Shown one piece after another: positions 20,061-57,487 of a stretch of 64,000 bases of DNA (positions are counted from its first letter, which is position 1; each line of letters begins with the position of its first letter). This DNA is from Thermoanaerobaculales bacterium. GTDB lineage: Bacteria > Acidobacteriota > Thermoanaerobaculia > Thermoanaerobaculales > Sulfomarinibacteraceae. A model generated the notes under the pieces. It was not told the DNA's origin. It searched no databases and saw only the letters and a list, made by a program, of their open reading frames with translations. Position numbers and translations under genes: made by a program. The stretch lies in NCBI GenBank assembly GCA_029287235.1, contig JARFRM010000058.1, positions 5,602 to 69,601 of the forward strand. Reading direction: 5' to 3'.

Positions 20061-20636
20061 TCAGCTTCGATCTTGCTCCACCGTCGTGACCACCGAGGCA
20101 TCGCGGAAGAAGTACTCCTGGTCCTCGGGCTGTTTGAGGTTGAGCAGGGTCAGAACGCTGATGGCGATGACCAGGGCCCAGACCACAAAGACCGCCGGCA
20201 TGGCGATGTTCATGTGGTGCTTGATCTCGTGGTTGAGCTCATCGACGTTCTCGGCGCCGTCCTTGATGGCCTTGAGGTTTCGAACCGCAGTGCCGGAGAT
20301 CGGGATCAGACAGAGCCCGTCGATGACGATCACCGCATAGAGGACGTGCTTCCAGGTCAGCCAGGTCGAGGAGAACGGAGCGTTGTCGGTGAGATAGCAG
20401 AGGATGATGCCCACCGGCAGCGTCAGAATGAAAATATACGCGACGATCCTGTCGATGCCGTGCATGATCTTGGCCCGCTCGAGACGGGCCTCGAGGGGCA
20501 CCGCGGGGTTCTTGACGTCGAAGTGAAGCCAGTAGACGAGGAAGTCGAAGAGCAGCCAGCCGGCGACCATGAATGCGTGCAGCCAGCGGAAGGAAACCTC
20601 GATGACGTTGATACCGAAAATATTGATGTCTGGCAT
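20061..20636 (-). CDS. Integral membrane protein, unknown function (4-5 TM)
   Basis: Start refined to ATG 20636. Hydrophobic segments include WLHAFMVAGWLLFDFLVYWL, IVAYIFILTLPVGIILCYL and PAVFVVWALVIAISVLTLL. It sits inside an operon. Confidence 0.6.
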   Translation of the reverse strand: MPDINIFGINVIEVSFRWLHAFMVAGWLLFDFLVYWLHFDVKNPAVPLEARLERAKIMHGIDRIVAYIFILTLPVGIILCYLTDNAPFSSTWLTWKHVLYAVIVIDGLCLIPISGTAVRNLKAIKDGAENVDELNHEIKHHMNIAMPAVFVVWALVIAISVLTLLNLKQPEDQEYFFRDASVVTTVEQDRS

Positions 20637-39556: not shown

Positions 39557-40228
39557 ATGCGGGTTCCTTTTTTCGTCCTGGGCCTCGTCGGCATCGTCGT
39601 CTCAACGTTTCCGGCGACATGCAGCGCGGAGGGCACCGATCCCGAGGCGATCATCGTGCTTTTCGACAACGGACCGATGAATCATGCAAATGGGCTTGGA
39701 GTCACGTCGGCGGAGAACGCCGACGACTTCGAGCTTTCGTTCGTGGCCGATCTGACGTCGGCGACCATCGGCATCGCGGACTTTACCGGCATGAGCTTCC
39801 CGGAGAACTGGGACGGGCTGGTCAAGTGGTTCATCTACACCGACGACTCCGGGTTGCCCGGTACCCTTCTGATGTCGGGAACGGGGCGGGATACATCCTA
39901 CGTCCTCGAGTCCTCCCTTCCGCCGTACGAGTTCTACTGGCTGAGCTTCAACCTGAACCGCCGGGTCTCACTCAGCGTCGGCGTGCGGTACTGGTTCGCG
40001 ATCAACCTGAACCGCCAGCTGACGACCAACTCCGGAATCACGTGGGCCGCCTCGACGGACCTCAACTACTCGCCGGGCGCATACAACAACCCCTACGGCA
40101 GCGGTGTCTACGAACCGTGGATCCTCGACTTCTCCTTCACGCTGAGCTCCAATACCGAGGTCAACTATATATTCGCAGACGGGTTCGAAACCGCCAATTC
40201 CCAGTACTGGTCTTCGACCCAACTGTAG
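39557..40228 (+). CDS. Secreted hypothetical protein ending in a diverged FADGFE module
   Basis: AGGAGG upstream. Signal peptide MRVPFFVLGLVGIVVSTFPATCSA. C-terminus NYIFADGFETANSQYWSSTQL*. Confidence 0.65.
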   Translation: MRVPFFVLGLVGIVVSTFPATCSAEGTDPEAIIVLFDNGPMNHANGLGVTSAENADDFELSFVADLTSATIGIADFTGMSFPENWDGLVKWFIYTDDSGLPGTLLMSGTGRDTSYVLESSLPPYEFYWLSFNLNRRVSLSVGVRYWFAINLNRQLTTNSGITWAASTDLNYSPGAYNNPYGSGVYEPWILDFSFTLSSNTEVNYIFADGFETANSQYWSSTQL

Positions 40229-42617: not shown

Positions 42618-43733
42618 TCAGCAAGGCGGTTCGAAGAGATCGACCCCGCCACCTATCGTGCGAGGAATCCCCGCGCGACGCCTCTGTACCGCCTGTTCGA
42701 TTCGCACTTTGACGAGGTGAAGGGGCAGTGGGAGGAGCGTTTCGAGCGCCGGTACGGGTTCTGGCGCGGCTTCGTCAACGAGCAGGTGCTGCGCCTGTAC
42801 TTCCTGCATCATCGCGAGCTGCTGGGCGGCCTCGCCCGGGCGGCGTGGGAGACCGTGCTCGAGTTGATGTGCACGGCGGTGGATGACGTGACGTTCAGGC
42901 CCGGGATGATCGCCTTCGTGCAGACGTCCGGGGATCTGGGCAATTGGCAGCCGCACACACACGCCATGGTTTTGCGCGGGGGATGGACGGCGGATGGTGA
43001 ATGGGCGCCGGTCCCCTTCATGGACGAGCACTCGGCGGAGCTGCTGCTCCGTCACAAGGTGATGCGGCTTCTCCAGGATGAGGGTCTGCTTTCCGAGGAG
43101 CGGACCGAGCTTCAGTTGTCGTGGCACCATACAGGCTTTTCGGTCAACAACCGGGTGTACGTCGAGCCCGAGGACCAGACGGCGGTCGAGCGGCTCGCCC
43201 GCCACATCATGCGTCCGCCGATCAGTCTCGATCGGATGAGCTGGGATGGGGAGGGGGAGGTGCGGTACCGGCGCAAGGGCGGTCACGAAGACCCGGCGCT
43301 GCACCTGGACCCGGTAGAGACCTTCGACCCGTCCGAGTTCCTGGCCCGTGTGATCATGCACATCCCGGAGCCGCGGCGACACCTGGTACGCTACTACGGG
43401 TGGTACTCCAACGTGTCGCGGGGGAGGCGGCGGTTAAGAGAAGAGGCCGCCGAATCTGCATGCTCGCCCGGCGAGGGCCACTCCCCTTCGACCCGAGCGA
43501 AAAAGGACCAGGGTCCGGCCGCCCGCGCTCTCCGTCGAAGCTGGGCGAAGTTGATCAAGCGTATCTACGAGGTTGATCCGCTGGTGTGCCCCTCATGCGG
43601 CGCCGAGATGAAGGTCATCGCGTTCATCAACGAGCACAAAGTGGCCGACAAGATCCTCCGGCATCTTAAACCCACGGAAGGGATGAAGGGTCGGGGGCCT
43701 CCTCGACACGCCGGGCTCGGAGCGGCGTCGTGA
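42618..43733 (+). mobile_element. IS91-family (Y2 HUH) transposase remnant: no start codon and Zn-finger region deleted
   Basis: ...YRARNPRATPLYRLFDSHFDEVKGQWEERFERRYGFWRGFV, QPHTHAMVLRGGW (HUH), RYYGWYSN and RRSWAKLIKRIYEVDPLVCPSCGAEMKVIAFI. No ATG/GTG/TTG occurs in frame upstream of 42717. The LDCG...SCK.R.FCPSC segment expected after VLRLY is absent. Confidence 0.75.
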
Positions 43734-44478: not shown

Positions 44479-46566
44479 CTACTCGGGGCACACCTCGTCG
44501 GCGCCCACATCCACCGTCACGCCCAGCGGTCGTACCTCTTTGTCCGCGTCGGTGGATGGCGCTCCATCCAGGCTCCCGGCGTCGATGAGCCCGGAGGTGG
44601 CCTGCAGGTGCAGGTCGGTGGGCGACTCGAAATCGGGCGGGAGCTGGATCGCTGTGGCCTCGTAGTTGTTCACCGTTGCGCGTGTGTAGCCCGCGCCTCC
44701 GGGGAGATAGACCACCTGGGTGGTCGGGCTCGCGCCCCAATAGGTGTTGTGAGAGTGGTCATGAGGGGTGCTCGGGTCGGCCATCAGATCACACGGGAAT
44801 CCGTTGCACAGGCCTCCGTTGCTCTGGCTGCAGGCATCGAGCGCGTTGTTGCGGACGACTGCCGCCGCCAGGTTTGGGCGCAGATTGATGCAGGCCCCGC
44901 CGATGTCACGAACCGAGTTGTTGACGATCTCGACCCCGGCAATGGTCGAGTCGATGAGGATGCCCATTGGGCTAGCATCGCGTACGCTCTGAGATGCATA
45001 CGCTCCGCGGATCATGTTGTTGACGATCCGGGCTCCGTCGATGCTGCCCATGCCCTGGGGCTCGAACTGGATCGCCGCACAGTCGCCGATTCCGGTGATC
45101 ACGGGGGGGTAGGGCCCTGCATAGGTGACGCTCCACTTGCAGTTTCCCGACACGCGATTGCCGTCCACGACGGTTTGATTGGAGGTACATCCCGACCCGC
45201 ACCCGTCTGACGACGTCGTGACCCAGATGCCGTCGCGAAAAGTGTTCTCGAGGTGATTGTTGCGAACCTCACAGCTGTTGCAGTTCTTCAGAATGACCGA
45301 CATCCCGAGGCTCGACCCGAGGCCGCCGCCGTCGATCCAGCCGAGCCCGGTGTCCCGTATCACCGAATCGGCGAGGATCATCCTCGACAGCTGCCGCCCG
45401 TAGGTCGGGCCCCCACCATAGAAGGCGATGCCTTCCCCCATGACCTCCACGCAAGAACCATTCAAGAAACGGATGTCCGACCCTGCGTTTGTTCGGAGGC
45501 ACCCGCCGTAGTCCCGTCCTCCTCCCGCGGTCACCTCGAGACCGTCAAAAACAAGATCGTGGGCCTCCGCGTCGATGCGGATCACGTGATAGCCATAGCG
45601 AAGCCGGAAAGCACCGCCACCCGGATTCCGACGAATCACCACGTGAGCAGCCGGCTCGGTGGCGGCGATCACCGCGTTTCCGCAGTCTCCGATCTGGCAG
45701 GTCAGGTGGACCTCGTGCAGGTCTGGATCACTGCCGTCCGGTAGACGGGCGACGATCGGGTTACCACTGAGGACCGAAAAGAACCGGCCCGGAGGCAGCT
45801 GATCGTGATCGGAGGCGAGATCGCTCGCCTGCTGCTCGGCGGTGTTTGCCCACCACCCGATCCGCACGCCGGGCGTGCTTGGGGTGGGGTCGATCCACAT
45901 CTGGGGCGTGTCCGCATTCGACACGTTGAACGCGGTCGTGTAGTAGGTCTCGGTGTGGCTCTGGAGCGACAGACCCGTGGCGGGTCCACACCGGGTCGGT
46001 GATTCACAGGGTTCCCAGTTCGACCCTCCCATGAGGTCCGCGTCGGAACCGTCGAGGATCACCTCCTCACCCGGATGGTTCTCGATCACGAGCGGCCGAT
46101 CCGCCGGACAGTTGAAGAAGAGCGGAAGCACCGTGTGATCACCGTCGTACCCCGAGACCTGCCGGTCGTCGTCACAGCCGATGAATCGCTCCCACTCGGT
46201 GGTGTCCGGGCTGAAGCCGTCGTAGCGATTGCGATAGACGCCACCGCGCAGAATCAACCTGTCGCCGCACTCGAGCCCTGCCTGCGTCGCGGCGAAGTAC
46301 AGGTTCGTGAATGGGTCGTCGATGGTCCCACTGCCCGGATCATCCGGGATGCAGTCCACGGATAGAGGCGCAACATAGTACGTGGAGCCTCCGTTGAGGG
46401 CGCCCACCGTGAGTGACCAGTTCGCGGTCGAACCGCTCTCGAAGCCATCGGCGAAGACCAGGTCCTGGGCCAGACAATCCACGGCACGGAGATCCTCCGC
46501 CGGGAGACTGCCTACCCCTCCGAAGCCGACCCCGAGCATCACAAACGTCGTTACGGTTTTCAGCAC
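44479..46566 (-). CDS. Secreted right-handed parallel beta-helix protein with N-terminal FADGFESG module
   Basis: 695 aa with a GTG start. Leader, then DLVFADGFESGSTANWS. Beta-helix repeats (NNHLENTFRDGIWV, NNMIRG, VNNSVRDIGGACI, VRNNALD). C-terminus ...TVDVGADEVCPE. Confidence 0.8.
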   Translation of the reverse strand: MLKTVTTFVMLGVGFGGVGSLPAEDLRAVDCLAQDLVFADGFESGSTANWSLTVGALNGGSTYYVAPLSVDCIPDDPGSGTIDDPFTNLYFAATQAGLECGDRLILRGGVYRNRYDGFSPDTTEWERFIGCDDDRQVSGYDGDHTVLPLFFNCPADRPLVIENHPGEEVILDGSDADLMGGSNWEPCESPTRCGPATGLSLQSHTETYYTTAFNVSNADTPQMWIDPTPSTPGVRIGWWANTAEQQASDLASDHDQLPPGRFFSVLSGNPIVARLPDGSDPDLHEVHLTCQIGDCGNAVIAATEPAAHVVIRRNPGGGAFRLRYGYHVIRIDAEAHDLVFDGLEVTAGGGRDYGGCLRTNAGSDIRFLNGSCVEVMGEGIAFYGGGPTYGRQLSRMILADSVIRDTGLGWIDGGGLGSSLGMSVILKNCNSCEVRNNHLENTFRDGIWVTTSSDGCGSGCTSNQTVVDGNRVSGNCKWSVTYAGPYPPVITGIGDCAAIQFEPQGMGSIDGARIVNNMIRGAYASQSVRDASPMGILIDSTIAGVEIVNNSVRDIGGACINLRPNLAAAVVRNNALDACSQSNGGLCNGFPCDLMADPSTPHDHSHNTYWGASPTTQVVYLPGGAGYTRATVNNYEATAIQLPPDFESPTDLHLQATSGLIDAGSLDGAPSTDADKEVRPLGVTVDVGADEVCPE

Positions 46567-46705: not shown

Positions 46706-46957
46706 TCACGGTTTCGGTGCCGACCGTCGTCGTACCGTCAAGGTAGGCGAAAGGGAATTCCTATCCCTCGCGGAGTTCCTCAGTCTTCTCGAGACCAGCC
46801 CGACGATGAGAGCCGACGCCGCGGCACCGCCGGCGCCGAAACAGACGAAGCACGAGGTACACCCGACCCCCGGGCAGACGACGGTCGGCAAGTAGGGCGC
46901 CAGCCCAGCTGAGATGCCCCCGACGCCGGCCGCGATCTTAAGCCGCCGGTTTGCCAT
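46706..46957 (-). CDS. Small Cys-containing membrane protein (83 aa)
   Basis: ATG 46957 (GGAG 9 nt upstream) overlaps the polyferredoxin 3' end by 20 nt. Sequence MANRRLKIAAGVGGISAGLAPYLPTVVCPGVGCTSCFVCFGAGGAAASALIVGLV... Confidence 0.4.
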   Translation of the reverse strand: MANRRLKIAAGVGGISAGLAPYLPTVVCPGVGCTSCFVCFGAGGAAASALIVGLVSRRLRNSARDRNSLSPTLTVRRRSAPKP

Positions 46958-47780
46958 AGTAGATTGCTCCGTGTTCGCAGACATCCTGGCACTGCCGGCA
47001 CGGCATGCAGGAGAGCTGATTGATCGTCGTGAGATCCGTGACATCGATGGCCCAGGTCGGACAGACCACCGAGCAGTCGCCGCAATTGGTGCACGCGTCG
47101 TGGTCGATGCGGATCCTGCGCCCGAACTTCGTCCCGAATCGGTTGGAGAGCGCATCGAGGGCGCCGATGGGGCAGAGAAGGTTGCAGTAGGCGCGACCGC
47201 CCTTGGCGAAGATCCCGAGGAAGAGCAGGAGACCGAAATTCACCACCCCCTGAAACCGGAGGAAGTAGATCAGATCGCCTTCGGAGAATGGTGCGGCAAA
47301 AAGCCTCGGGACGGCGGCGAAGTTGCAGTAGTTGCAGCACAAAGAACCGATCCCGATGGCCGGTGCGATGAGATAGATCAGCAGATAGCCGTATCGAAAC
47401 GACGGCGCCGGGGTTGCCGAGAAGTTGAGCTTGAACTTCTTTGGGATCAGCCGGCTTCCGAGCTCGAGGGGAGCGGCCACCGGGCACAGGTGGCTGCACC
47501 AGTAGCGCCCGAAGGCCAGGGTCGTGGCCAGAATGCCGACAACCAGCGCAACGCCCATGTAGGCCCGGACAAAGCCCATGAGGAAGGACGACATGGTCTG
47601 GCCCTCCCGCCAGACGAAGAACATCCGTGGGCACCAGCGGCCGCAGAAGTTGACATCACCGGTCATCTGGATGATGGCCGCCAGCGGCGGCAGAAAAAGC
47701 ACGATGCTCGCGATGAGGATCAGGGTTCGGTGCTTGGACCAGAAGGAAACGGGAGTTGCACCCTTCGTGTCAGTGTTCAT
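46938..47780 (-). CDS. Membrane polyferredoxin (NapH/CcoG/YccM-type, COG0348-like) 4Fe-4S protein
   Basis: Three membrane CxxxCP motifs (FCGRWCP, WCSHLCP, YCNLLCP) plus two ferredoxin motifs (CTNCGDCSVVCP, CMPCRQCQDVCEHGAI). The start at ATG 47780 overlaps the upstream gene by 11 nt. Confidence 0.85.
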   Translation of the reverse strand: MNTDTKGATPVSFWSKHRTLILIASIVLFLPPLAAIIQMTGDVNFCGRWCPRMFFVWREGQTMSSFLMGFVRAYMGVALVVGILATTLAFGRYWCSHLCPVAAPLELGSRLIPKKFKLNFSATPAPSFRYGYLLIYLIAPAIGIGSLCCNYCNFAAVPRLFAAPFSEGDLIYFLRFQGVVNFGLLLFLGIFAKGGRAYCNLLCPIGALDALSNRFGTKFGRRIRIDHDACTNCGDCSVVCPTWAIDVTDLTTINQLSCMPCRQCQDVCEHGAIYYGKPAA

Positions 47781-48252
47781 GGTGTTCACCCCCCGTCCCG
47801 CCGAAGATGACCGGGATCTTGAGCACCGGTCTTCCCGATGCCGTATCGGTGAAGGTGACGTCGCGTTTGCCGGCGGACATGGGTTCGTCCGGGTCCATGA
47901 CCACCCAGATGGTGAATCGGTCACGTGGTTGAAGCCCGGTCAGGATTCCGTCCTCGAAGTAGGGACGGTGGCGCAGCGCGAGATCGATGATGGGGTCGGA
48001 GCCGCGCACGATGAACGGAACCGGTTCGCCACCGTCGACCGTCACCCGGGCATCGCCCTGGTAAGGGGGTAGGATCGTGCCCGTGATGACAAGGGTGTAG
48101 CGGTCCTTGCCGGCCGGCAGGTGGACTGGGTGGAGGGCCCGACCTCCCTTGATGGAGATCATTCCCATGGCGTGGGCCGAGTCTCCGTGCCGATACCACG
48201 CGGCGGCGACCGAAAGAACGGCTGCGAGTATGAAGACGAGTGTTTTCTTCAT
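47770..48252 (-). CDS. Membrane-anchored or periplasmic beta-rich protein with His-rich tail (FixH/YtkA-like size and topology, unverified)
   Basis: 160 aa. N-terminal TM/signal MKKTLVFILAAVLSVAAAWY. C-terminus ...GGTGGEHHEH*. It starts 19 nt after the TonB receptor stop. Confidence 0.6.
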   Translation of the reverse strand: MKKTLVFILAAVLSVAAAWYRHGDSAHAMGMISIKGGRALHPVHLPAGKDRYTLVITGTILPPYQGDARVTVDGGEPVPFIVRGSDPIIDLALRHRPYFEDGILTGLQPRDRFTIWVVMDPDEPMSAGKRDVTFTDTASGRPVLKIPVIFGGTGGEHHEH

Positions 48253-48270: not shown

Positions 48271-50664
48271 TCAGAACCTGCAGGCAAAGCGGGCGAGCAA
48301 TGCCCGCGGGGCTGCAGGGGAGTAGCGGTAGGCCCCATAAAGGTCCCTTTGCGCTTCCACCGCGTACCGCTGGTCGAAGAGGTTTTGGATGATCACGGCG
48401 GCCTCGAAGCGGTGATTCTGCCACCCGACCGTCAGGTCGGTCACGAATTCATAACCCTCGTACTTCTCGGTGTTGGCGTTGTCCATCCAGTATTCGCCCC
48501 AGGAGTTTGCGGTGGCCCGCAGGTACACTCCCGTCGGGTTGACGTAGGCCGCAAAGAGTGAGTAGTAGTGTTCCGGAATGTAGGGCAGGTGATTGCCGCT
48601 GCGGTCGATGTTGGTGCCGAAGGCAGGTTCGGAGAAATCCTTGTAGGTGTAGTTCGAGTAGGTGTAGCTCCCGCCGAGGGACAGACCGGCCGCCGGTATC
48701 CACGTGAGCGCGACCTCCACACCCTTCTTCTCGGTCTCTCCTGCATTGACGTACTCGGTCTCGCCGTAGCCCTGGATCACCTGGACGACCTCGTCAAAAA
48801 CCGGGCTGTAGTACACCGATGTGTCAAAGGCGAACGTCCTCCAGCTCGATTTGATCCCGACCTCGTAGTTGTTCACCGTGGTGAGTTTGAGGTCGGGGTT
48901 GAGCGTGAGCTCGTCGGTGGTGGGTGTCTGCGCCCCGGCGGAGATGTTGCCGTACAGGTGGACGGCGTCGCTCGCGTTGTAAACGACGCCGATCCTGGGA
49001 CTGAACGCGGTGTAGGTTTCGACGGTGTCGATGGGACCTTCGCCATCGACATAGCCGCCGCTGCTCCAGTTGTAGTCGATCCACTCGTAACCCTGGACAT
49101 CAAAGGTGATGCGGTCGACACGAGCTCCAAGATCCAGCAACCACCGGGATCCGAAGTGCATGGACTCCTGGGCGTAGATGCCGTAGAGCGATGTTCCGCG
49201 CTCCAGGTCCCGCATCAGCTCGCCGGGTTCGTCCGACAGGGTCGAGAGGATCCTCCCGCTCGGTGTCTGAAGAACATCGGCGTAGGTGTAGGCCTGGGAG
49301 TCCTGGTTGTCGAGACGGGCCGTGATGCCGCCGGTGAGCACTCCGAAACCGTGGTCCCAGTCCGCCTGGAGATCTATCCCGCCGACAAAGGTGTCGGCGT
49401 CGTTGATGCGTGCCGTGACGGGGTGGAAGTGGCTCCACTTGTTGAGATAGAGCAGAGGCATGAACTGAACATCGCCGAAGCGCTTGATGAGCTTGGAGCC
49501 GAAGAAGAGGATTTCCGAGTTCCGCGAGCTGTGCTTCCACGGTTCAGCGGTGCGTTCCACGTCGCCGGTTTCCATGTACGGTGTCCACTGATCGATGTGG
49601 TATCTGTCGTTGACGATGAGTCGTCCCGGGAGCTGGAGGTTGGCGTCGGTGTAGCTGATGAAGTTCTCCCACACCCAGCCGTTGCCGAGGATCCACGAAG
49701 GCTGCAGGGTGAACTGGGTGGTGTCGAACTCGTTCCACTCCCGCCAGTCGTTGGTGGATTGGCGCCGAGAAAAATTCACGTTGAAGAAAGTCTTGTCGCC
49801 GATGTCTCCGGTGTAACCGACCTGGACGTTGCGGGCGCCGTAGTTGCCGACATCCAGCCTGGCGCTGCCGCCGTGACCATCGAATGGACTTTTGGTGACG
49901 ACGTTGATGGCGCCGCCCGTGGAGTTGATGCCCCACAGGGTGGAGTTCGGACCTCGGACCACCTCGATCCGGTCCACCAGATGGGTGTCGACGAAGTCGA
50001 GCCGGGTCAGGCTGTCGGGGTCGGTGATGGGGATCCCGTTGAGCAGGACCATCACCTCGCGGATGGCGTAGCGCGCCTTGAGGCCGGCGCCGCGGATGAT
50101 GAGGCGTGCGTCGTACCCCTGACTTTTGGACTCGATGAGGACGCCGGGGGTGCCGACGACGGCCTCCTTGATGTTGGTCATGGGTGTTTTCTCGATGATG
50201 TCGCTGCCGATGACCGAAACCGCCGCGGGGACCTCCTCAATGGCTCTTGCGGTGCGGGTGGCGGTGATGGTGATGGAATCCTTGAACTCTGCGGACAGGG
50301 TGATGTCATGGGTGACCTCGCCGCCCTCCTGAACATCGAGGGTCGTCGAGTAGGCTTCAAAACCGGGACTCTCGATGGCGAGGGTGTAGGATCCGGGAAT
50401 CAGGCCCGCAAACAAAAAGCGCCCCTCGGCCTGGCTGATGGTTCGGAGCGGTTGTTCGAGTCCCGCGCCATCGAGTCGAAGACCGATCCCGGCGATGCCG
50501 GCGGCCGACCCGGAATCGACGCTGATCACTCGGCCGCTGACGGACCCGGTGGTCAGCGGCTGAGCACTTAGAAGACCCGCGAACATGAGAAATACGCACA
50601 CAAGAACTCCACCGAGGATCGCGGCGGATGGTCGCGGTCCGTCGGCGGTTCGAATGAAATACAT
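48271..50664 (-). CDS. TonB-dependent receptor with N-terminal carboxypeptidase-regulatory-like domain
   Basis: ATG 50664 (GGGAGGAG upstream). Signal peptide, then GSVSGRVISVDSGS...GSYTLAIESPGF, a plug region (ITITATRTARAIEEVPAAVSVI), and a terminal ...ALLARFACRF. Confidence 0.9.
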   Translation of the reverse strand: MYFIRTADGPRPSAAILGGVLVCVFLMFAGLLSAQPLTTGSVSGRVISVDSGSAAGIAGIGLRLDGAGLEQPLRTISQAEGRFLFAGLIPGSYTLAIESPGFEAYSTTLDVQEGGEVTHDITLSAEFKDSITITATRTARAIEEVPAAVSVIGSDIIEKTPMTNIKEAVVGTPGVLIESKSQGYDARLIIRGAGLKARYAIREVMVLLNGIPITDPDSLTRLDFVDTHLVDRIEVVRGPNSTLWGINSTGGAINVVTKSPFDGHGGSARLDVGNYGARNVQVGYTGDIGDKTFFNVNFSRRQSTNDWREWNEFDTTQFTLQPSWILGNGWVWENFISYTDANLQLPGRLIVNDRYHIDQWTPYMETGDVERTAEPWKHSSRNSEILFFGSKLIKRFGDVQFMPLLYLNKWSHFHPVTARINDADTFVGGIDLQADWDHGFGVLTGGITARLDNQDSQAYTYADVLQTPSGRILSTLSDEPGELMRDLERGTSLYGIYAQESMHFGSRWLLDLGARVDRITFDVQGYEWIDYNWSSGGYVDGEGPIDTVETYTAFSPRIGVVYNASDAVHLYGNISAGAQTPTTDELTLNPDLKLTTVNNYEVGIKSSWRTFAFDTSVYYSPVFDEVVQVIQGYGETEYVNAGETEKKGVEVALTWIPAAGLSLGGSYTYSNYTYKDFSEPAFGTNIDRSGNHLPYIPEHYYSLFAAYVNPTGVYLRATANSWGEYWMDNANTEKYEGYEFVTDLTVGWQNHRFEAAVIIQNLFDQRYAVEAQRDLYGAYRYSPAAPRALLARFACRF

Positions 50665-50799
50665 TTGATCTCCTCCCGAAGTGGACGGCGCCACCGGTGA
50701 ACCCGAGACATGGCGTATGAGAATTCACGTCCTCACAGGACCACGAAACAGACCCGCGCACACGGCAGGGCAGCGTCCGATTTCAACTGATCGTAAAAG

Positions 50800-51195
50800 T
50801 CAGGAGGAGAGTCTTGGTGGGTGTTTGTGTTCGTAGGCGAGACGCCACGATTGAGACTGGTCCGCCGCAGGGAGGGACGACCAGATCAGTTCCGGGACGA
50901 TGGTGGAGCCGCCCTGGGCGGGGACGCTCTTCCAGGACGACGCGGCGCCCATGTGCATCGGTTCCGAACAACCACAACCGCAGGCGGTCTTCAGGGAGAC
51001 GCCCTGCTGCGAGCAGGCGCAGCCTTTGGCGGGCCCTTTACACGAGCAGTCGGACGCGCAGCCGCAGTCGTGGCACCCGTTTTCGTTCTGCATACCCTGC
51101 ATACCCGCAGCGGCGGAGAGTTCGGCACCGTGGACGCAGAAGATCAGCGCCAAAGTGAACACAAGCGACAGGGCTCGAAAAACAAAAACGCACAT
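50800..51195 (-). CDS. Small secreted Cys-rich (metallothionein-like) protein
   Basis: Signal peptide MCVFVFRALSLVFTLALIFCVHG. There are 10 Cys within about 40 aa (GCHDCGCASDCSCKGPAKGCACSQQGVSLKTACGCGCSEP), followed by MHMG. No obvious SD sequence. Confidence 0.6.
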   Translation of the reverse strand: MCVFVFRALSLVFTLALIFCVHGAELSAAAGMQGMQNENGCHDCGCASDCSCKGPAKGCACSQQGVSLKTACGCGCSEPMHMGAASSWKSVPAQGGSTIVPELIWSSLPAADQSQSWRLAYEHKHPPRLSS

Positions 51196-51350: not shown

Positions 51351-54086
51351 CTAGGGGTCGGGCGTCGAGGACGTCCGCGGTTCAAACCCGCCGACGATCA
51401 CGAAGGGCGCCCAGTGGAAGGGGTGGTCGAACCCTTGGCTCGCGGCGATCTTTCGTTTGGCGTTCCCCAGGGCAACCGCGGGCTCATGGTCTTCGAGACC
51501 TCGGTAGAAGGCCGTCATCAGGTCGCGCGTCGAGCGGTCTTCCACCGGCCATAGTGAGATCACCACGGCGTTCGAACCGGCGTAGAGAAACGCCCGGGTG
51601 AGGCCCAGCAACCCTTCGCCCGAGAGCTCGGCGCCCAGTCCGGTCTCGCATCCGGAGAGCACCACGAGCTCGGCGTCCAGCGACAGATCGAAGATCTCGA
51701 AGGCCTGGAGCAGACCGTCGTCATCATCCGATGAACCGAGAACGAGGCCGGAGTGCTCGGGGAGATCCGAGCTCGCCAAAGCGTGGGTGGCGAAGTGGAG
51801 GTGGGAGGACGACCGAAGACCGGGATGATCGAGGATGCGCCTTTCAAGAGCGTCGTCGCCCGTGAGCACGACGGCACGGTCGGGAGGGAAAAGCCCGGCC
51901 ACTTCGGCCACCTCCGCTCGCGCCTCGGGAAGGGGACGGAGATCGCCGAAGCTGCGCCCCTCGGCAAGGGTGCGGCTGGTCGATGTCGTGGTGACGGTGG
52001 TCGACTCCAATGCGGGTTTCGCCGTCGGCAGCAAGGGGTCGGCCACGGCGAAGAGGCTCGGTTCGGCATGGTGTCTGCGGCGAATGGCCAGGGCCTCGAT
52101 CATGGTGACCGATGGGGCGTAGCTGACGGACCAGCGCTCCAACACGGACCTGACCTCGTCGATCGTCAGGGCCTCGAAGGGAAGCAGGTGGAGCACCCCG
52201 TCTGGAACCACGACGAGGCGGTCGATACCGTTCAGCCGATCCATGGCCGGGCCGAGGAGCAGTTTCCCGGCGTCGGCGGCGGATCGGTCGAGCCGGCCGC
52301 GGTCCCGGCGCCCTGGACGGGCCATGAGATCCCGAAGAGGTTCGATGAGGATGCGCAGCTCGTCCGATCCTGGCAGCAGATGGGCGCCCAGGGCGTCACC
52401 GGTGACGATCAGCATCACCGTGTTGCGCTCACCGACAAGGTACTCGACGAGCGCGGTGTCGTCACCCAATCTGCGCTGAAGGGCCTCGAGGTCGGGGGCG
52501 GCGACCTGGGACCGTGCGCTGCGGCGGCGAAGCGAGCTCTCGATTTCGCGGCGCTCGTCGTCGAGCTGTAATCTTCGGGCCTCGATTTCGGCTCGCTCCG
52601 AGTCCGGGATCTCGACCCCGAGAAGCCTGGTCTGCACCGCACTGAGCTCGCTCAAGACGGCTTCGTAACGGTCTTCCAACCGCACATCATCGGTGTTTGC
52701 ATGGCCGCCGCCGGACGCTTTGACAAGTTCGAGCAGGGTCCGGGCGTGGGCCTTTTCCGAAGCTGTGAACGCCTCTTCGAGATGGTTGCCTGAGGGGTCT
52801 TTGGTGTCGAGCTCCACCAGCGCAGTGGCGAGCATCACATAGATCTCCCGCTGCGGGGCGAGGTAGCGGGCGCGGAGATCGGGGTCGGCTAGCTCGCCCC
52901 GGATCGTCTCGAGGAGTTCCAGTGCCAGGAGACACTCGTCGCGGCCGCGACCGAACTCCCCGAGGTCGAGACTAGCCTCGGCCATCGTCCGCAGCGTGCT
53001 CAGCTTCTGTCGATCGAGTCCGAGCTCGGTGTAGGTCTCGAGGCTCTCGGCCAACCGGCGGTGGGCCTCGACGGGATGGCCGGTCTCCACCAAGACGCGA
53101 GCGACGTTTGTCGAGGTGACGGCGATTCCCACAGGGTCGCCGAGCTCGGTGGCGACGGCGTTGGCCTCGAGATAGAGCTCGAGGGCGCGGTCGAGATTGC
53201 CGAGCTTGCGTTCGAGGCCGGCGAGCTGGTTGATCACGATCCCGACCCCCCGGGTCTCGCCGATCTCACGCCTCAGCTTCAGCGAGCGCTCGTACGATCG
53301 TCGCGCCTCGTCCGAGAGGCCCAGCTCCACCTGCGCCTGGCCGAGCTCGCGAAGCGCCCACGCTTCCCGTCTCCGGTCCCCACGCTCTTCGGCGAGCTCG
53401 ACAACCTCGACAAATCTCCGGGAGGCGCGTTCCGGGTCGCCCAGTCTGAGATGAATCGAGGCGACGGCGATGAGCGACGACAGTTCCTTGTCGTCGAGTC
53501 CGGCTTTTCGAGCGAAGGTCAACGCCCGCCGGTGGGTGTCGAGGGCGTCCTGGTAGGCGAGGCGGACCGCGTAGGAGGAGGCCAGGTTGTGGAGCATCGT
53601 GTGGTGCTGACGGGATTGTCCGAGCTCGAGCGCCAGCTCGGCTACCCGGATGAAGATTGCTTCCGCCTCGGCGTTTCGCCCCTGTTCGAGACGAACACCC
53701 GCGAGCTCGCCCAGGACCTCGGAGAGGAGCTCGAGATCACCGACCTCTTCGGCGATGGCCCTGGCGGCGATGGCCGCCTCCGCCGCCCGGTCCCACTCAT
53801 TGAGCTGGGCGCACGTGTTGGCAACGCCACGCAGGGACCGACCCAGCTGTTGCCGGTCACCCAAACGTTCCCAGAGGGCCGAGGCGCGTTCGAAGTCGTC
53901 CCGCGCCCGGGCCATCACGGCGCCGTCCGGAGGCTGGTTCTCGGACTCGATCACTGCCATGGCGCGGGTAGTGAGCGTCTCGGCCTCGCGTCGTAGCGCG
54001 TCCGGGTCCCCAGCTTCGCCCGGACCAGGTCTTCCGAGACACGCCGCGACGACGAGCAAGGTCAGCAGGATGCGATTTTGGTTCAC
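51351..54086 (-). CDS. TPR-repeat + CHAT (caspase-like protease) domain lipoprotein
   Basis: GTG start at 54086 (leader VNQNRILLTLLVVAAC with a lipobox). Many TPR-like repeats (ALWERLGDRQQLGRSLRGVA..., etc.). The C-terminal CHAT domain has HFATHA and VVLSGCETG. The first roughly 249 codons of the listed ORF are antisense to the sigma gene. Confidence 0.85.
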   Translation of the reverse strand: MNQNRILLTLLVVAACLGRPGPGEAGDPDALRREAETLTTRAMAVIESENQPPDGAVMARARDDFERASALWERLGDRQQLGRSLRGVANTCAQLNEWDRAAEAAIAARAIAEEVGDLELLSEVLGELAGVRLEQGRNAEAEAIFIRVAELALELGQSRQHHTMLHNLASSYAVRLAYQDALDTHRRALTFARKAGLDDKELSSLIAVASIHLRLGDPERASRRFVEVVELAEERGDRRREAWALRELGQAQVELGLSDEARRSYERSLKLRREIGETRGVGIVINQLAGLERKLGNLDRALELYLEANAVATELGDPVGIAVTSTNVARVLVETGHPVEAHRRLAESLETYTELGLDRQKLSTLRTMAEASLDLGEFGRGRDECLLALELLETIRGELADPDLRARYLAPQREIYVMLATALVELDTKDPSGNHLEEAFTASEKAHARTLLELVKASGGGHANTDDVRLEDRYEAVLSELSAVQTRLLGVEIPDSERAEIEARRLQLDDERREIESSLRRRSARSQVAAPDLEALQRRLGDDTALVEYLVGERNTVMLIVTGDALGAHLLPGSDELRILIEPLRDLMARPGRRDRGRLDRSAADAGKLLLGPAMDRLNGIDRLVVVPDGVLHLLPFEALTIDEVRSVLERWSVSYAPSVTMIEALAIRRRHHAEPSLFAVADPLLPTAKPALESTTVTTTSTSRTLAEGRSFGDLRPLPEARAEVAEVAGLFPPDRAVVLTGDDALERRILDHPGLRSSSHLHFATHALASSDLPEHSGLVLGSSDDDDGLLQAFEIFDLSLDAELVVLSGCETGLGAELSGEGLLGLTRAFLYAGSNAVVISLWPVEDRSTRDLMTAFYRGLEDHEPAVALGNAKRKIAASQGFDHPFHWAPFVIVGGFEPRTSSTPDP

Positions 54087-54125
54087 CCAACCTTCAACAC
54101 CGGGCACCGCGCGTCGATTCCTCTT

Positions 54126-54692
54126 ATGATGGTTGGAGTGGACTCGACCCTGGTTGACGAATTCTTGGGCGGCGACCCGATGGCCGCGGAGACGATCTCG
54201 AAGTGGATCGGTCTCGCGGCGTGGTCGTTTCGATCGCGTTTCGGGGACGACTGGGAGGACGCGGTGGCAGACGCCACCCTCCAGGTCACCCGCGCACTGC
54301 GGGAAGGACGGTTCGCCGGCCGCGGCACCCTCAAGGCCTATGTCCGACGAGTTGCGCTGACCACCTGTCTCGATCGGCTGAGGTCGAAGAAGCGGTGGCG
54401 CTGGACCGAGCTCGTCGAGGAACTCCACCCCGAGGATCCGAAGAGCCCGGCGGACAGGGTCGAATCGGAAGACACATGGCGGTTGGCGGCGATGGTGGTG
54501 AAAGAGATGTCCGACGACTGCGTCAGACTGTGGCGGATGCTCCTCGATGGGCTCGATTACGCACAGATGGCCGAGCGGCTGGACACCGCGGCCGGGACCC
54601 TCAGGGTCCGTGTTCTGAGGTGCCGCAAACGGGCGGTGGAGATTCGGCGAAAGCTCGAGTGCAACAATAAGGCGACCCGAACGCCGGAGTAG
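54126..54692 (+). CDS. ECF-type RNA polymerase sigma-70 family factor
   Basis: Region 2 (DAVADATLQVTRAL...TLKAYVRRVALTTCLDRLRS) and region 4 (LDYAQMAERLDTAAGTLRVRVLRCRKRAVEI). Confidence 0.85.
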   Translation: MMVGVDSTLVDEFLGGDPMAAETISKWIGLAAWSFRSRFGDDWEDAVADATLQVTRALREGRFAGRGTLKAYVRRVALTTCLDRLRSKKRWRWTELVEELHPEDPKSPADRVESEDTWRLAAMVVKEMSDDCVRLWRMLLDGLDYAQMAERLDTAAGTLRVRVLRCRKRAVEIRRKLECNNKATRTPE

Positions 54693-54696
54693 GGGA

Positions 54697-55494
54697 ATGA
54701 AGATGGACTGCACCTCCGCGATCGAGCGTCTCCCCTGGATGGTCAACGGGACCCTGGCCGATGAAGAGCGGTCGGAGCTCGAGGCCCACCTGGCCGGGTG
54801 CCCGATCTGCCGGTCCGAGCTCGCCGAGACCATCGAGGTCTTCCGTCTGGCGTCGGCCCACCCGCCGACTGCGGTGCTGGTGGAGTGGGCTCAGGGCCGA
54901 GAGGATGCGGGTGCCGAGCTCATTGAGCGTCACGTGGCGGGCTGCCCCGCCTGCGCCGAAGAGGTGGATCTGGTCCGCGAGGCGTTCCGGCTGGAAGCAT
55001 TCGCCCCCCGTGGCGGGGCACCGGCACTGAGGGCCGTGGTTGCGTGGCGCCGAGCCGCGCTGGCAGCCGCCGCGGTGGCGGTTGTGGGTCTGCTGGCGTT
55101 GGTGACGTTGTGGATGCCTGGAGGATCTCTCGGAAGCGGCGCCAGAGGGACTGCCCCCCTGGCCAACCTGCCGGTGGTGGAGCTCCTCCCCGACGGCTTC
55201 GCCCTCCGCGGTGGGGATGAGCCGCCGGTGATCGAGACCGGGTCCGACGCGGTGGCGCTGATCCTCGCCACCCGGGCTGAGGCCGTGTGGGACCACTACC
55301 GGTTGCGGGTCCTCGACGCAGACGGGCGTGAGTTGTGGTGGACCGCAGATCTTATCCGTCAGCCCACCGACGACTTCACGGTGCTGCTGCCCGTAAAGAT
55401 GATGACGGGAGCGGAGATCCGGCTCGTGCTCGATGGCGGCGGCGACGGGACCTGGACCGAGCTCGAGACCTACCGACTGAGAACCCTTCCCTAG
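54697..55494 (+). CDS. Anti-sigma factor, zf-HC2 type, single TM
   Basis: Starts 4 nt after the sigma stop. H-x3-C-x2-C motif (LEAHLAGCPICRSEL) and a second copy (HVAGCPACAEEV). TM segment AALAAAAVAVVGLLALVTLW. Confidence 0.75.
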   Translation: MKMDCTSAIERLPWMVNGTLADEERSELEAHLAGCPICRSELAETIEVFRLASAHPPTAVLVEWAQGREDAGAELIERHVAGCPACAEEVDLVREAFRLEAFAPRGGAPALRAVVAWRRAALAAAAVAVVGLLALVTLWMPGGSLGSGARGTAPLANLPVVELLPDGFALRGGDEPPVIETGSDAVALILATRAEAVWDHYRLRVLDADGRELWWTADLIRQPTDDFTVLLPVKMMTGAEIRLVLDGGGDGTWTELETYRLRTLP

Positions 55495-55654
55495 GAGCCT
55501 GCACCGCAGAGAATCGGCGGCGCCTTTCGGGCGGCATTTTGCCCGTTTTTCGCCTGTTTCTTGGCCCATACCACCAGTATGAACCGGCGAAACAGGCGAA
55601 AATCGGCCACAAAAGCCGAACGGTGTTATTCGGGTGTCGTTCGGGACCCGAATC

Positions 55655-55680
55655 GAACCTTTTCTCCCAATAGTTCGATA
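55655..55680 (+). promoter_or_regulatory. Weak ECF-type promoter candidate upstream of the beta-helix gene
   Basis: GAAC (55655-58), a 17-nt spacer, then CGATA (55676-80), about 75 nt upstream of ATG 55754. Generic ECF -35 AAC / -10 CG pattern only. Confidence 0.2.
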
Positions 55681-55753
55681 TTGCGTCTGTAACGCATTCG
55701 CATTTCGGACGCCGTTGCTCACAGATCGCACTTTTCGAACATGGGAGGACATC

Positions 55754-57487
55754 ATGACGAACATTTCGACGGGCTCGGCTTTTCGTTTTCTGAGCGCTGC
55801 TTCATTGCTGATCACCGTGGTTGCGCTGATGGCGGGACAGGTCGGTGCAGCCGAGTTTACGGTGGGGTCGGGGACCGGCTGCAGCTCCAACTCGATTCCC
55901 GGCGCCCTCCTCCTGAGCGCCCTCAACGGTCCCGGGCTCGACATCATCAAGATTGCCGGCAACCAGAGCTACACCGCCCAGCACATCGTCATATCCAACC
56001 AGTCGGTGAGCCTGATCGGTGGGTACTCGAGCTGCACCGACCCCACCGGCGGAGGCCAGACGGTGATCTCCGGTGCGGGCGGCTCCGTCAACCCGGTTGT
56101 CGAGATCTCGGGCACCGCGAACGGCACCCGATCTGTGGAGCTCGTGAACATGGAGATCTCCGGCGGTGAGGAGGGCGGTGTGGTCGTCAGCGGCGCCAAT
56201 CTCGTCTCCATCCAGGACTGCCTCATCACGGACAACCAGCGTGGCGACGGCGGCGGAATCCACCTCGACGGTGCCGACGGGGCGGTCCTCACCATCGCCG
56301 ACGATGCGGCCGTGATCGCCAACACGGCGACCAACCCGTCGAGCAAAGGCGGTGGAATCTACTGTCAGAACGGCGGCATCATCATTCTCGAGGGGCTGGT
56401 GGCCGGCAACAGCGGCTGGTTCGGCGGTGGGGTGTTCATGTCCGATTGCACGATGAACGACTTCGCCGGCGGCGCCCTCCGCGGCATCGTGGGCAACACC
56501 GGAACCATCGGCGGCGGGATCTTTGCTGCGGCCTCGAGCGCCGTCAATCTCAGCGGGAACTCCGAGCACCCGGCCATTGTGTCGTCCAACCTGGCGTCGT
56601 TCAAGGGCGGTGGGGTGTGGATCCAGAACGGTTCGTCGTTGACTGTCAGGGACTCCTGGATCGTCGACAACGACGCCGGCGAGCTCGCCGGCGGTGTCGG
56701 CCTGTCGCAAGACTCGACCTTGATCATGGACCGAACCTACGGCGGCGACTGCCACACCGCGGATCGCTGCTCGAAGCTCTCGGGCAACTGGGTGACCGGA
56801 TCGCCCAACCAGGGCGGGGCGCTGTTCGTCGAGGCGGGATGTGTCGCCGACATTCGTCAGACCTATCTCGAGGGAAATCAGGCGTTGTTCGGCTCGGCTG
56901 CGTGGGTGGAAGGTGTCGGAGCTCAGCTCCTACTCGAGGGTGACGTGCTCGCCGGCAACCACGGCGAATCGGTGATCTACCAAATGGATCAGGCCGTCGT
57001 GCGCGCCGCCTTCGTCACAAGCTCAAGAAATACGGCGTCAGGCAGTGGAGCCTCGTTCTACACCAACGCCTCGGTGGACACGACGACTGAGATCTACTCG
57101 AGCATCATCGACGACCCCCTGGTCTGGGGTGGTCTCGGCGGCGGCAGCCATACCTACGACTGCATGATCGTTCGTTCGGGATTCGGACTCCCGACCCCGG
57201 GCGGATATGTGCTCGAGGCGGACCCCCTCTTCCGCGACCCGGTCGTCTGGGACTTCCACCTCAGTCTGGCTTCACCGGCCATCGACTACTGCGACACCTT
57301 CCTCTACAGCCCCACCGAGGCGGACATCGACGGTCAGCCGCGAGGCGAGGATCTGGCTTCGGTCGCGAATAACCTCGGGCCCTACGATCTCGGCGCCGAC
57401 GAATGGTCGGACGACCCCGCCAGCGTGATCTTTGCCGACGGATTCGAGTCGGGGGACACCTCGGTGTGGACCGAAGTGTCGCCTTGA
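55754..57487 (+). CDS. Secreted beta-helix protein with polymorphic-membrane-protein-like GGxI repeats and C-terminal FADGFESGDT module
   Basis: ATG 55754 (GGGAGGA upstream). Signal peptide ...LLITVVALMAGQVGAA. Repeats GGGIHLDG, GGGIYCQNGG, GGGVFMSD, GGGIFAAA, GGGVWIQNG and GGALFVEAG. Contains DLGADEW. C-terminus VIFADGFESGDTSVWTEVSP*. Confidence 0.8.
   Translation: MTNISTGSAFRFLSAASLLITVVALMAGQVGAAEFTVGSGTGCSSNSIPGALLLSALNGPGLDIIKIAGNQSYTAQHIVISNQSVSLIGGYSSCTDPTGGGQTVISGAGGSVNPVVEISGTANGTRSVELVNMEISGGEEGGVVVSGANLVSIQDCLITDNQRGDGGGIHLDGADGAVLTIADDAAVIANTATNPSSKGGGIYCQNGGIIILEGLVAGNSGWFGGGVFMSDCTMNDFAGGALRGIVGNTGTIGGGIFAAASSAVNLSGNSEHPAIVSSNLASFKGGGVWIQNGSSLTVRDSWIVDNDAGELAGGVGLSQDSTLIMDRTYGGDCHTADRCSKLSGNWVTGSPNQGGALFVEAGCVADIRQTYLEGNQALFGSAAWVEGVGAQLLLEGDVLAGNHGESVIYQMDQAVVRAAFVTSSRNTASGSGASFYTNASVDTTTEIYSSIIDDPLVWGGLGGGSHTYDCMIVRSGFGLPTPGGYVLEADPLFRDPVVWDFHLSLASPAIDYCDTFLYSPTEADIDGQPRGEDLASVANNLGPYDLGADEWSDDPASVIFADGFESGDTSVWTEVSP

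Follow-up and report, generated by a model that had tools for sequence, protein, structure and literature searches.

DdvA of Myxococcus xanthus is a zinc-binding anti-sigma (ZAS) factor with a periplasmic TPR-CHAT region, for which a signal-induced cut of the linker by the CHAT domain, followed by the action of RseP, has been proposed (PMC11506125). The dependence on RseP was shown after removal of the TPR-CHAT region, and the CHAT step is called unproven and unprecedented by the authors; outside Myxococcota, the one reported host of a fused DdvA homologue is a Comamonas (PMC11506125). In type III-E CRISPR systems, the TPR-CHAT protein Csx29 cleaves Csx30, an inhibitor of the sigma factor CASP-sigma, which resembles the extracytoplasmic function (ECF) type (PMC10028731). 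Here we describe a three-gene module composed of an ECF sigma factor, its anti-sigma factor and a divergently encoded TPR-CHAT lipoprotein. It lies in a 64,000-nt stretch of DNA, hereafter the window, from a Thermoanaerobaculales bacterium (assembly GCA_029287235.1, contig JARFRM010000058.1, positions 5,602–69,601 of the forward strand). An original prediction, made from the letters of the window, had located the sigma gene at 54126–54692 (+), the anti-sigma gene at 54697–55494 (+) and the lipoprotein gene at 51351–54086 (-), and all three genes were confirmed. The window has a G+C content of about 63%, matches metagenome contigs (such as L001) exactly, and carries this one module, with no second one of the type in it. 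In a literature search, no paper was found that describes the pairing of a ZAS anti-sigma factor with a periplasmic TPR-CHAT lipoprotein from a gene of its own. Judged from its genes, the module appears to be a split variant of the known CHAT-based control of ECF sigma factors, and activation of this kind has so far been proposed only for the fused periplasmic DdvA.

Scanning of the GTDB species representatives with an alignment of the sigma factor yielded 145 related loci, mostly from uncultured Thermoanaerobaculia and Holophagales, the hosts of the sigma homologues being metagenome-assembled genomes of Acidobacteriota. The best 79 loci were taken for neighborhood counts, and 72 of them, with at least 3.2 kb of upstream flank, were evaluable for an upstream CHAT gene. 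An anti-sigma homologue lies directly downstream of the sigma gene in 79/79 loci. A divergent TPR-CHAT gene lies immediately upstream in 62 of the 72 evaluable loci, or in 63 if the degraded copy of L083 is included, and three more evaluable loci have the CHAT gene elsewhere in the locus, which leaves six lacking it. The conserved CHAT neighbors for which the original prediction proposed to look are found in most relatives, but not in all, and the three genes are kept together in about 87%–90% of the evaluable homologous loci. The closest relatives of the module are L005 and L006. In most loci, the sigma factor is only 39%–46% identical to that of the window, and the arrangement has therefore been conserved for a long time. 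Two contigs (L016 and L061) bear two tandem modules, each with a CHAT gene of its own; L077 has two CHAT genes next to one sigma gene, and two sigma genes are present in six loci. Subsets of loci contain SIMPL-like, cupin, DUF1223-like or flotillin-like neighbor genes, and clustering of conserved neighbors gave no fourth universal gene of the module. Acidobacteriota genomes are rich in ECF sigma genes as well as in TPR-CHAT genes, and functionally unrelated genes might have come together fortuitously. However, the same divergent arrangement recurs in these 62–63 loci at 35%–78% protein identity, and the intergenic elements are conserved as well, so that chance is effectively refuted by conservation and an accidental adjacency is hardly credible. 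The arrangement is far beyond chance, which supports that the sigma factor, the anti-sigma factor and the TPR-CHAT lipoprotein form one conserved functional unit.

The lipoprotein gene encodes an exported protein of 911 aa, or of 918 aa from the alternative GTG start at 54107 that is used in metagenome gene calls. Its N-terminus, MNQNRILLTLLVVAAC, is a lipoprotein signal. Direct reading of the sequence places the signal peptide at 54039–54086 (-), with MNQNRILLTLLVVAA ahead of C16, and its lipobox V-A-A-C16 conforms to the pattern [LVI][ASTVI][GAS]C. Export signals are present in nearly all CHAT homologues, mostly as L-x-x-C lipoboxes; by a crude heuristic, at least 34 of 62 homologues have a lipobox, and the rest mostly have SPase-I-type signals. 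The signal peptide is followed by a TPR superhelix at about residues 28–530 (52497–54005, -), which consists of about 11 helix pairs plus long helices and was delineated by four stretches of TPR_12, the secondary structure in the AlphaFold2 (AF2) model and TPR matches to LGN/Pins. The C-terminal part is a CHAT caspase-fold domain at residues 605–899 (51390–52274, -). The Pfam matches have E-values of 1.3e-64 for CHAT and 4.5e-32 for TPR_12. The dyad motifs HFATHA and LSGCETG occupy residues 764–769 and 810–816, respectively, with His768 at 51783–51785 and Cys813 at 51648–51650. The catalytic dyad that the original prediction had read from these motifs is intact upon proper alignment, where it coincides with H862 and C907 of DdvA. 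Moreover, both residues are invariant in 67/67 homologues, in the contexts HFATH-A/G and LS-A/G-C.

The AF2 model of the whole lipoprotein has a pLDDT of 87.6 and a pTM of 0.86. A Foldseek search with this model gave Csx29 (4e-17), human separase (1.5e-15) and DdvA (2.8e-14) as the top PDB folds, and the predicted structure is that of a separase/craspase/DdvA-type TPR-CHAT protein. The best PDB match of a CHAT-domain profile is DdvA (8rot_B/8rw5, 6.9e-8), aligned across H862 and C907, followed by Csx29 chains at 0.01–0.02. The domain profile was needed to reach DdvA, as a PDB search with the single CHAT sequence returned TPR matches only (LGN/Pins). In most CHAT homologues (L009, L011, L071 and others), the lipobox and the TPR region are separated by an additional beta-rich domain of about 110 aa, for example at residues ~30–140 of L071, with the pattern EREIxGGExHxYxLxLxAGxYLRLxIDQxGIDV. 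This domain is absent in the window, L005 and L006, and no Pfam family matched it. Within the CHAT domain of the window, a Thr/Ser-rich loop, TVTTTSTSRTLAEGRSFGD, spans residues 691–709 (51960–52030, -). It is predicted to be disordered (pLDDT <50) and lies in a region that varies among relatives; from the model, an autoinhibitory or autoprocessing role of this loop is conceivable.

The sigma gene encodes 188 aa from the ATG at 54126, but alignment with L005, L006 and the sigma homologues favors the GTG at 54138 (MDSTLV...), from which a product of 184 aa is more probably made. In total, 55 sigma homologues were found, and their N-terminus is conserved. The protein scores 46.6 bits against NCBIfam TIGR02937 (sigma70-ECF), above the cut-off of 42.9, and the region 2 and region 4 matches of the single sequence in Pfam are under the gathering cut-offs. 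A profile of the family matches the structures of RpoE, AlgU and SigE at about 4e-12 over residues 2–171, with no DdvS chain among the structure matches. By these profile matches, the product is an ECF (group IV) sigma-70 factor with regions 2 and 4 only. Three of its cysteines, C81 (54366–54368), C132 (54519–54521) and C166 (54621–54623), are invariant in all 20 aligned homologues, and one of them sits in region 4, within its conserved TLRVRVLRCRKRA helix; they may have a redox or metal role.

The anti-sigma gene starts 4 nt after the sigma stop codon and encodes a protein of 265 aa with a zf-HC2 match of 2.8e-12. Its cytoplasmic domain (54697–55023, +) contains two zinc-type motifs, C5/H31/C35/C38 and H55/H79/C83/C86, and all eight residues are invariant among 28 homologues. 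The second motif, H55 and H79-x3-C83-x2-C86 (54859–54954), comes after the canonical one, so that the N-terminus is in effect a tandem ZAS domain; zf-HC2 matches twice in one relative. The best PDB match of this domain is RsiW (8.5e-5); the N-terminal domain of DdvA matches at 0.023 and over the second zinc motif only. Given the H-x3-C-x2-C motif, the position directly after the sigma gene and the single transmembrane (TM) helix, the predicted protein is a class I zinc-binding anti-sigma factor. The TM helix lies at about residues 110–137 (55024–55107, +), where hydropathy peaks at 2.58. In the AF2 model, helices extend to residue 101 (pLDDT 75–97), the TM helix spans residues 110–137, and pLDDT falls below 50 at residues 104–126, 130–154 and 161–170, segments that cover the periplasmic linker (55108–55218, +). 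The disordered linker leads to an Ig-like beta-sandwich of seven strands at about residues 175–265 (55219–55491, +; pLDDT 80–92). This periplasmic domain is conserved through the family; a Foldseek search with it gave weak Ig-like and CopC-like neighbors, and no Pfam family matched it. The linker bears the motif ANLPVVELLP...LRGG. Among 72 anti-sigma factors, conservation in the periplasmic part is highest at the Arg of a (V/L)-R-G motif, which follows P-x-(I/L/V)-N...P and closely precedes the beta-sandwich. In the window, this position corresponds to Arg171-Gly172 (55207–55212), possibly a site of cleavage or recognition. Most relatives have a coiled-coil of variable length between the TM helix and the Arg motif, which the protein of the window lacks.

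These features enable us to propose a putative trans-acting, DdvA-like model, to which we give about an even chance, in which the TPR-CHAT lipoprotein is both the sensor and the site-1 protease of the anti-sigma factor. Initially, the zinc-binding class I anti-sigma factor would hold the ECF sigma factor at the inner membrane, exposing to the periplasm a disordered linker followed by the Ig-like beta-sandwich. The divergently encoded lipoprotein, located in the periplasm, would act as sensor and site-1 protease. A signal would activate the His768/Cys813 center, probably through binding of a ligand to the TPR superhelix, and the active protease would then cut the anti-sigma linker in trans, with the near-invariant Arg171-Gly172 as the candidate site. 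Afterwards, the remaining anti-sigma stump would be passed to an RseP-type site-2 protease and cytoplasmic proteases, and the sigma factor would be freed toward its putative regulon. The whole scheme would correspond to the autoproteolysis proposed for Myxococcus DdvA, split between two proteins. The original prediction had put forward an envelope signaling module in which the CHAT protein controls, or is controlled by, the anti-sigma factor. The module itself is well supported by the conserved three-gene unit, the invariant dyad and the export signals; we infer the direction of control, from CHAT to anti-sigma, because of the analogy with DdvA and craspase and the conserved Arg in a disordered linker.

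The two proteins might instead interact without any cleavage, the TPR-CHAT lipoprotein serving as an RseB-like co-sensor or protector, or the Ig-like domain as a securin-like inhibitor of the protease. Separase, which cleaves after Arg, is indeed controlled by a bound pseudosubstrate, and the active site of DdvA has been described as incomplete (PMC11506125). In addition, the TPR domain and the extra beta domain of most homologues are typical binding modules. Against this, the complete invariance of the His-Cys dyad indicates selection for catalysis, and the conserved Arg is located in a disordered linker rather than in a folded interface. We thus consider a purely non-cleaving partnership unlikely.

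The direction of control also depends on whether the lipoprotein is an output of the sigma factor, to which the intergenic sequence is relevant. The divergent control region (54087–54137) overlaps a conserved block and contains two overlapping -10-like hexamers, whose pattern suggests promoter function. On the plus strand, TATGAT (54125–54130) is followed by 7 nt and then GTG 54138; on the minus strand, TAAGAG (54126 to 54121) lies 32 nt before the CHAT GTG at 54086. The two hexamers of the window overlap by 2 nt, back to back. The original prediction had the two starts about 40 bp apart, and the gap is indeed 39 nt with the starts it used, at 54126 and 54086; with GTG 54138, which is more probable from the start alignment, it becomes 51 nt, and with the CHAT GTG 54107 of the metagenome gene call it is 18 nt. 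The accompanying claim, that each promoter must lie inside the coding sequence of the other gene, is partly right; the two -10-like hexamers were found back to back inside the gap. The block CGATTCCnCTTATGATGG is common to the window and L005, and L006 retains only its CGATTCC. The ATGATG that precedes the GTG is out of frame in L005, and the block is therefore non-coding there.

Across the family, a TAnnnT hexamer occurs 5–8 nt before an in-frame start in 45/80 sigma genes, versus 0.75% in a random control. TAGGAT is the commonest form of this sigma-proximal hexamer, usually as part of AGAAGGATAGGAT, and in 37 cases 7 nt separate the hexamer from the start. Such a layout suggests that the sigma mRNA is leaderless; alternatively, the element may be a Shine-Dalgarno sequence, with AGGA 8 nt upstream of the start. 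On the CHAT strand, TGGGGTAAGATGG is found about 32 nt before the GTG start in many loci, and no conserved -35 or ECF-type AAC was found at a fixed distance from it. The core GGnTA(A/G)GAT has 42 copies in the module intergenic regions, which make up 1.9% of the sequence, and 13 in the rest, a roughly 165-fold enrichment. One outside copy, at 1005–1036 of L037, carries the core GGGTAAGATG within a canonical-looking promoter, TTGACT-N16-TAAGAT; the sigma gene there has no CHAT neighbor. Given this canonical TTGACT -35, the element looks like a housekeeping-type -10 rather than an ECF promoter. The CHAT-upstream element accordingly resembles a -10-only promoter of housekeeping type, which would fit a constitutively made signaling component and not an induced target. 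A sigma-70 consensus scan gave 0 promoters. Two candidate ECF promoters were rejected: the 'ATAGGAT...CGAC' pair, whose hexamer lies 7 nt before the start codon and whose other part is conserved coding sequence, and the sigmaE-like CGACCTG-N-TCTTAC, whose spacing varies from 13 to 20 nt.

It is conceivable, then, that the main target of the sigma factor is the TPR-CHAT lipoprotein, which would be made when needed as an envelope protease with other proteins of the periplasm or cell surface as substrates. A divergent or operonic position beside a sigma/anti-sigma pair is also typical of ECF target genes; the sigma- and CHAT-proximal elements share the enriched core, so that one sigma factor could read both, and related TPR-CHAT genes occur without any sigma gene nearby. 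However, the conserved CHAT-strand element lacks the ECF-like AAC, and the identical GGGTAAGAT element elsewhere has the housekeeping-type -35 described above. Furthermore, CHAT is accompanied by the periplasmic domain of the anti-sigma factor and its Arg motif in more than one ECF subfamily and gene order, which points to a partnership of CHAT with the anti-sigma factor, and in both characterized CHAT/ECF systems the protease acts upstream of the sigma factor. We therefore regard an output role as rather doubtful.

This co-occurrence emerged from the reciprocal comparison, starting from CHAT homologues in metagenome contigs with 37 evaluable loci. The present sigma family was detected by tblastn in 6/37 loci versus some ECF sigma factor in 21/37 by hidden Markov model searches; the link therefore extends beyond one sigma family and does not include every TPR-CHAT protein. 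Three gene orders were found: divergent, sigma>anti-sigma>CHAT, and CHAT>sigma>anti-sigma. In four loci of the second order (L122, L124, L134 and L154), the N-terminal domain of the anti-sigma factor is of a different zf-HC2 type, and what these loci have in common with the module is the C-terminal beta domain together with the '(A)N-V-P-L/V-V-x-L...R' motif ahead of it. Thus, a receiver-like periplasmic domain travels with TPR-CHAT across sigma subfamilies and gene orders. Near a CHAT gene of Gemmatimonadales, a convergent sigma gene and a 199-aa gene are present, and no sigma gene was found near the CHAT homologues of Thermodesulfobacteriota and Pseudomonadota. We tentatively extend the model to a possible wider principle, in which site-1 cleavage of ECF anti-sigma factors in trans would be a general, so far unrecognized function of exported TPR-CHAT lipoproteins. 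The anti-sigma factors to be cut would be recognizable by a dedicated periplasmic receiver consisting of the disordered linker, the conserved N-x-P-x-V...Arg motif and the Ig-like domain, the pairing would extend over at least two phyla, Acidobacteriota and Gemmatimonadota, and over several gene orders and ECF subfamilies, and the fused DdvA would be a derived special case.

Several points weigh against a CHAT protease that acts on the anti-sigma factor. The conserved linkage would be equally expected if CHAT were the main target gene of the sigma factor, and the promoter argument to the contrary is weak. In 6–7 of the 72 evaluable loci, the sigma/anti-sigma pair has no CHAT gene within 10 kb; L007, L010, L022 and L052, which lack a CHAT gene nearby and have an alignable anti-sigma C-terminus, nevertheless keep the Arg motif, and many related TPR-CHAT genes stand apart from any sigma gene. 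The conserved Arg of the linker could instead be structural, and CHAT proteases are not generally specific for Arg. The sigma factor and the N-terminus of the anti-sigma factor are not close homologues of DdvS and DdvA, and the proposed interaction and cleavage rest on sequences and models. Finally, CHAT-mediated cleavage has not been demonstrated even for DdvA (PMC11506125).

The surroundings of the module in the window are rich in genes for secreted proteins. Downstream of the anti-sigma gene, the original prediction had seen two secreted beta-helix/adhesin-like proteins; the first is indeed a beta-helix protein of 577 aa (55754–57487), and the second turned out to be a giant protein with a PKD domain, which starts at 57543, runs beyond the end of the window with more than 2100 aa, and has 2209 aa in L001. 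Just after it, at 20406–20567 of L001 (about 570 nt past the end of the window), there is a second CHAT-domain gene of 864 aa on the opposite strand. On the strand of the lipoprotein gene and downstream of it, the predicted metal-uptake-like cluster and beta-helix protein are present. A secreted Cys-rich protein of 131 aa (50800–51195, -; CHDCGCASDCSCKGPAKGCAC...CGCGCSEP), for which no Pfam match was found, is encoded upstream of a TonB-dependent receptor (48271–50694) and a Fer4_5 protein (46938–47924), and from these gene contents the group looks like a metal-binding or metal-uptake cluster. A terminator-like hairpin with a T-run (55528–55555, +; scan match CGGGCGGCATTTTGCCCG then TTTTTCGCCT, hairpin at 55528–55545) ends the sigma/anti-sigma unit. 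Four neighboring secreted proteins share the tag (I/V)F(A/E)DGFE(S/T/M)G...W (FxDGFE), at 40174–40225, at 57433–57484, at about 46450 (-) and at the end of the 2209-aa L001 protein. In three of these proteins the tag is located at the very C-terminal end; in the 44479–46566 protein it is close to the N-terminus, at position 49 of the stop-to-stop frame. It may serve as a signal for sorting or processing. About 8 kb from the module, at 42717–43733 (+), an ORF encodes a Y2_Tnp transposase domain (6.8e-26), and Rfam gave nothing in 44–64 kb.

The original prediction had further suggested that the surrounding secreted proteins are substrates or regulon members. In this reading, the module governs the adjacent beta-helix, PKD and metal-uptake genes, in line with the presence of the beta-helix gene after the module in the window, L005 and L006, as well as with the terminal FxDGFE...W tag of the four neighboring proteins. 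However, a beta-helix gene adjoins the module in these three loci only, no beta-helix or metal-uptake neighbors were found in the other 77 loci, and the tag, considered as a substrate mark, is likewise absent from all of them. Besides, the terminator-like hairpin separates the anti-sigma gene from the beta-helix gene. The shared -35/-10 ECF motif for which the upstream regions of the neighbors were to be searched did not rise above shuffled controls: six bipartite motifs were observed among six candidate upstream regions of the window, versus 2.8 ± 2.2 expected from shuffles, and none was common to four or more regions. The regulon proposal is thereby disfavored, and we regard it as quite improbable.

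Among the described systems that pair CHAT proteins with ECF sigma factors, DdvS-DdvA and craspase come closest to the module. DdvS-DdvA shares with it the ECF sigma factor, the zinc-binding N-terminal domain, the single TM helix, the flexible periplasmic linker and the TPR-CHAT region with its His-Cys dyad, along with the proposed logic of a CHAT linker cut followed by RseP. In contrast, the 265-aa anti-sigma factor and the 911-aa TPR-CHAT protein of the present module are encoded by separate genes on opposite strands, whereas they are fused in DdvA; the anti-sigma factor carries an Ig-like domain and a second zinc motif, the host belongs to Acidobacteriota, and defense genes were not recognized near the module. 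PADLOC found no defense systems beyond a generic TPR model. In the split form, the proposed mechanism is directly testable, as protease and substrate are separate proteins that can be purified and combined, and one Arg or Cys can be exchanged. Craspase likewise combines a TPR-CHAT protease with a separately encoded inhibitor of an ECF-like sigma factor, and its protease Csx29 is the top fold match of the lipoprotein. However, craspase is cytoplasmic, activated by RNA-bound Cas7-11 and directed at the soluble Csx30, whereas the present protease candidate is exported and scores only 15.4 bits against NCBIfam NF041237 (Csx29; cut-off 300) and 22.4 against NF041236 (cut-off 100). No cas annotation turned up among the ORFs scanned in 39–64 kb, the remaining window not being annotated.

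The two other CHAT-type systems are more distant. The actinobacterial group ECF54 has CHAT, subtilase and carboxypeptidase genes in its context and no anti-sigma factor, and proteolytic control has been proposed for it (PMC8999054, PMC7826278). It shares with the present module a CHAT-domain protein in a conserved ECF sigma neighborhood and differs in that every one of the 79 loci examined here has a zf-HC2 anti-sigma gene and Acidobacteriota as host. Separase, regulated by securin, has a similar overall build of a TPR-like superhelix and a CHAT/caspase domain, but it is a eukaryotic cytoplasmic or nuclear enzyme with no link to sigma factors, and the identity is only 10%–14%. The proposed scheme is also reminiscent of classical regulated intramembrane proteolysis, as in sigmaE-RseA-DegS-RseP and sigmaW-RsiW-PrsW-RasP, in which a single-pass anti-sigma factor is cut by a separate site-1 protease outside the cytoplasm and then by a site-2 protease; the N-terminus of the present anti-sigma factor is closest to RsiW, and the sigma factor matches RpoE. 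Unlike in these systems, the candidate site-1 protease has its gene beside the sigma operon and is of the clan-CD, caspase-fold cysteine type with a TPR sensor, not a serine protease or metalloprotease. If the model is true, a large group of TPR-CHAT proteins whose annotation goes no further than 'CHAT domain-containing' would gain a function, and caspase-fold cysteine proteases would join the known site-1 proteases of bacterial envelope signaling.

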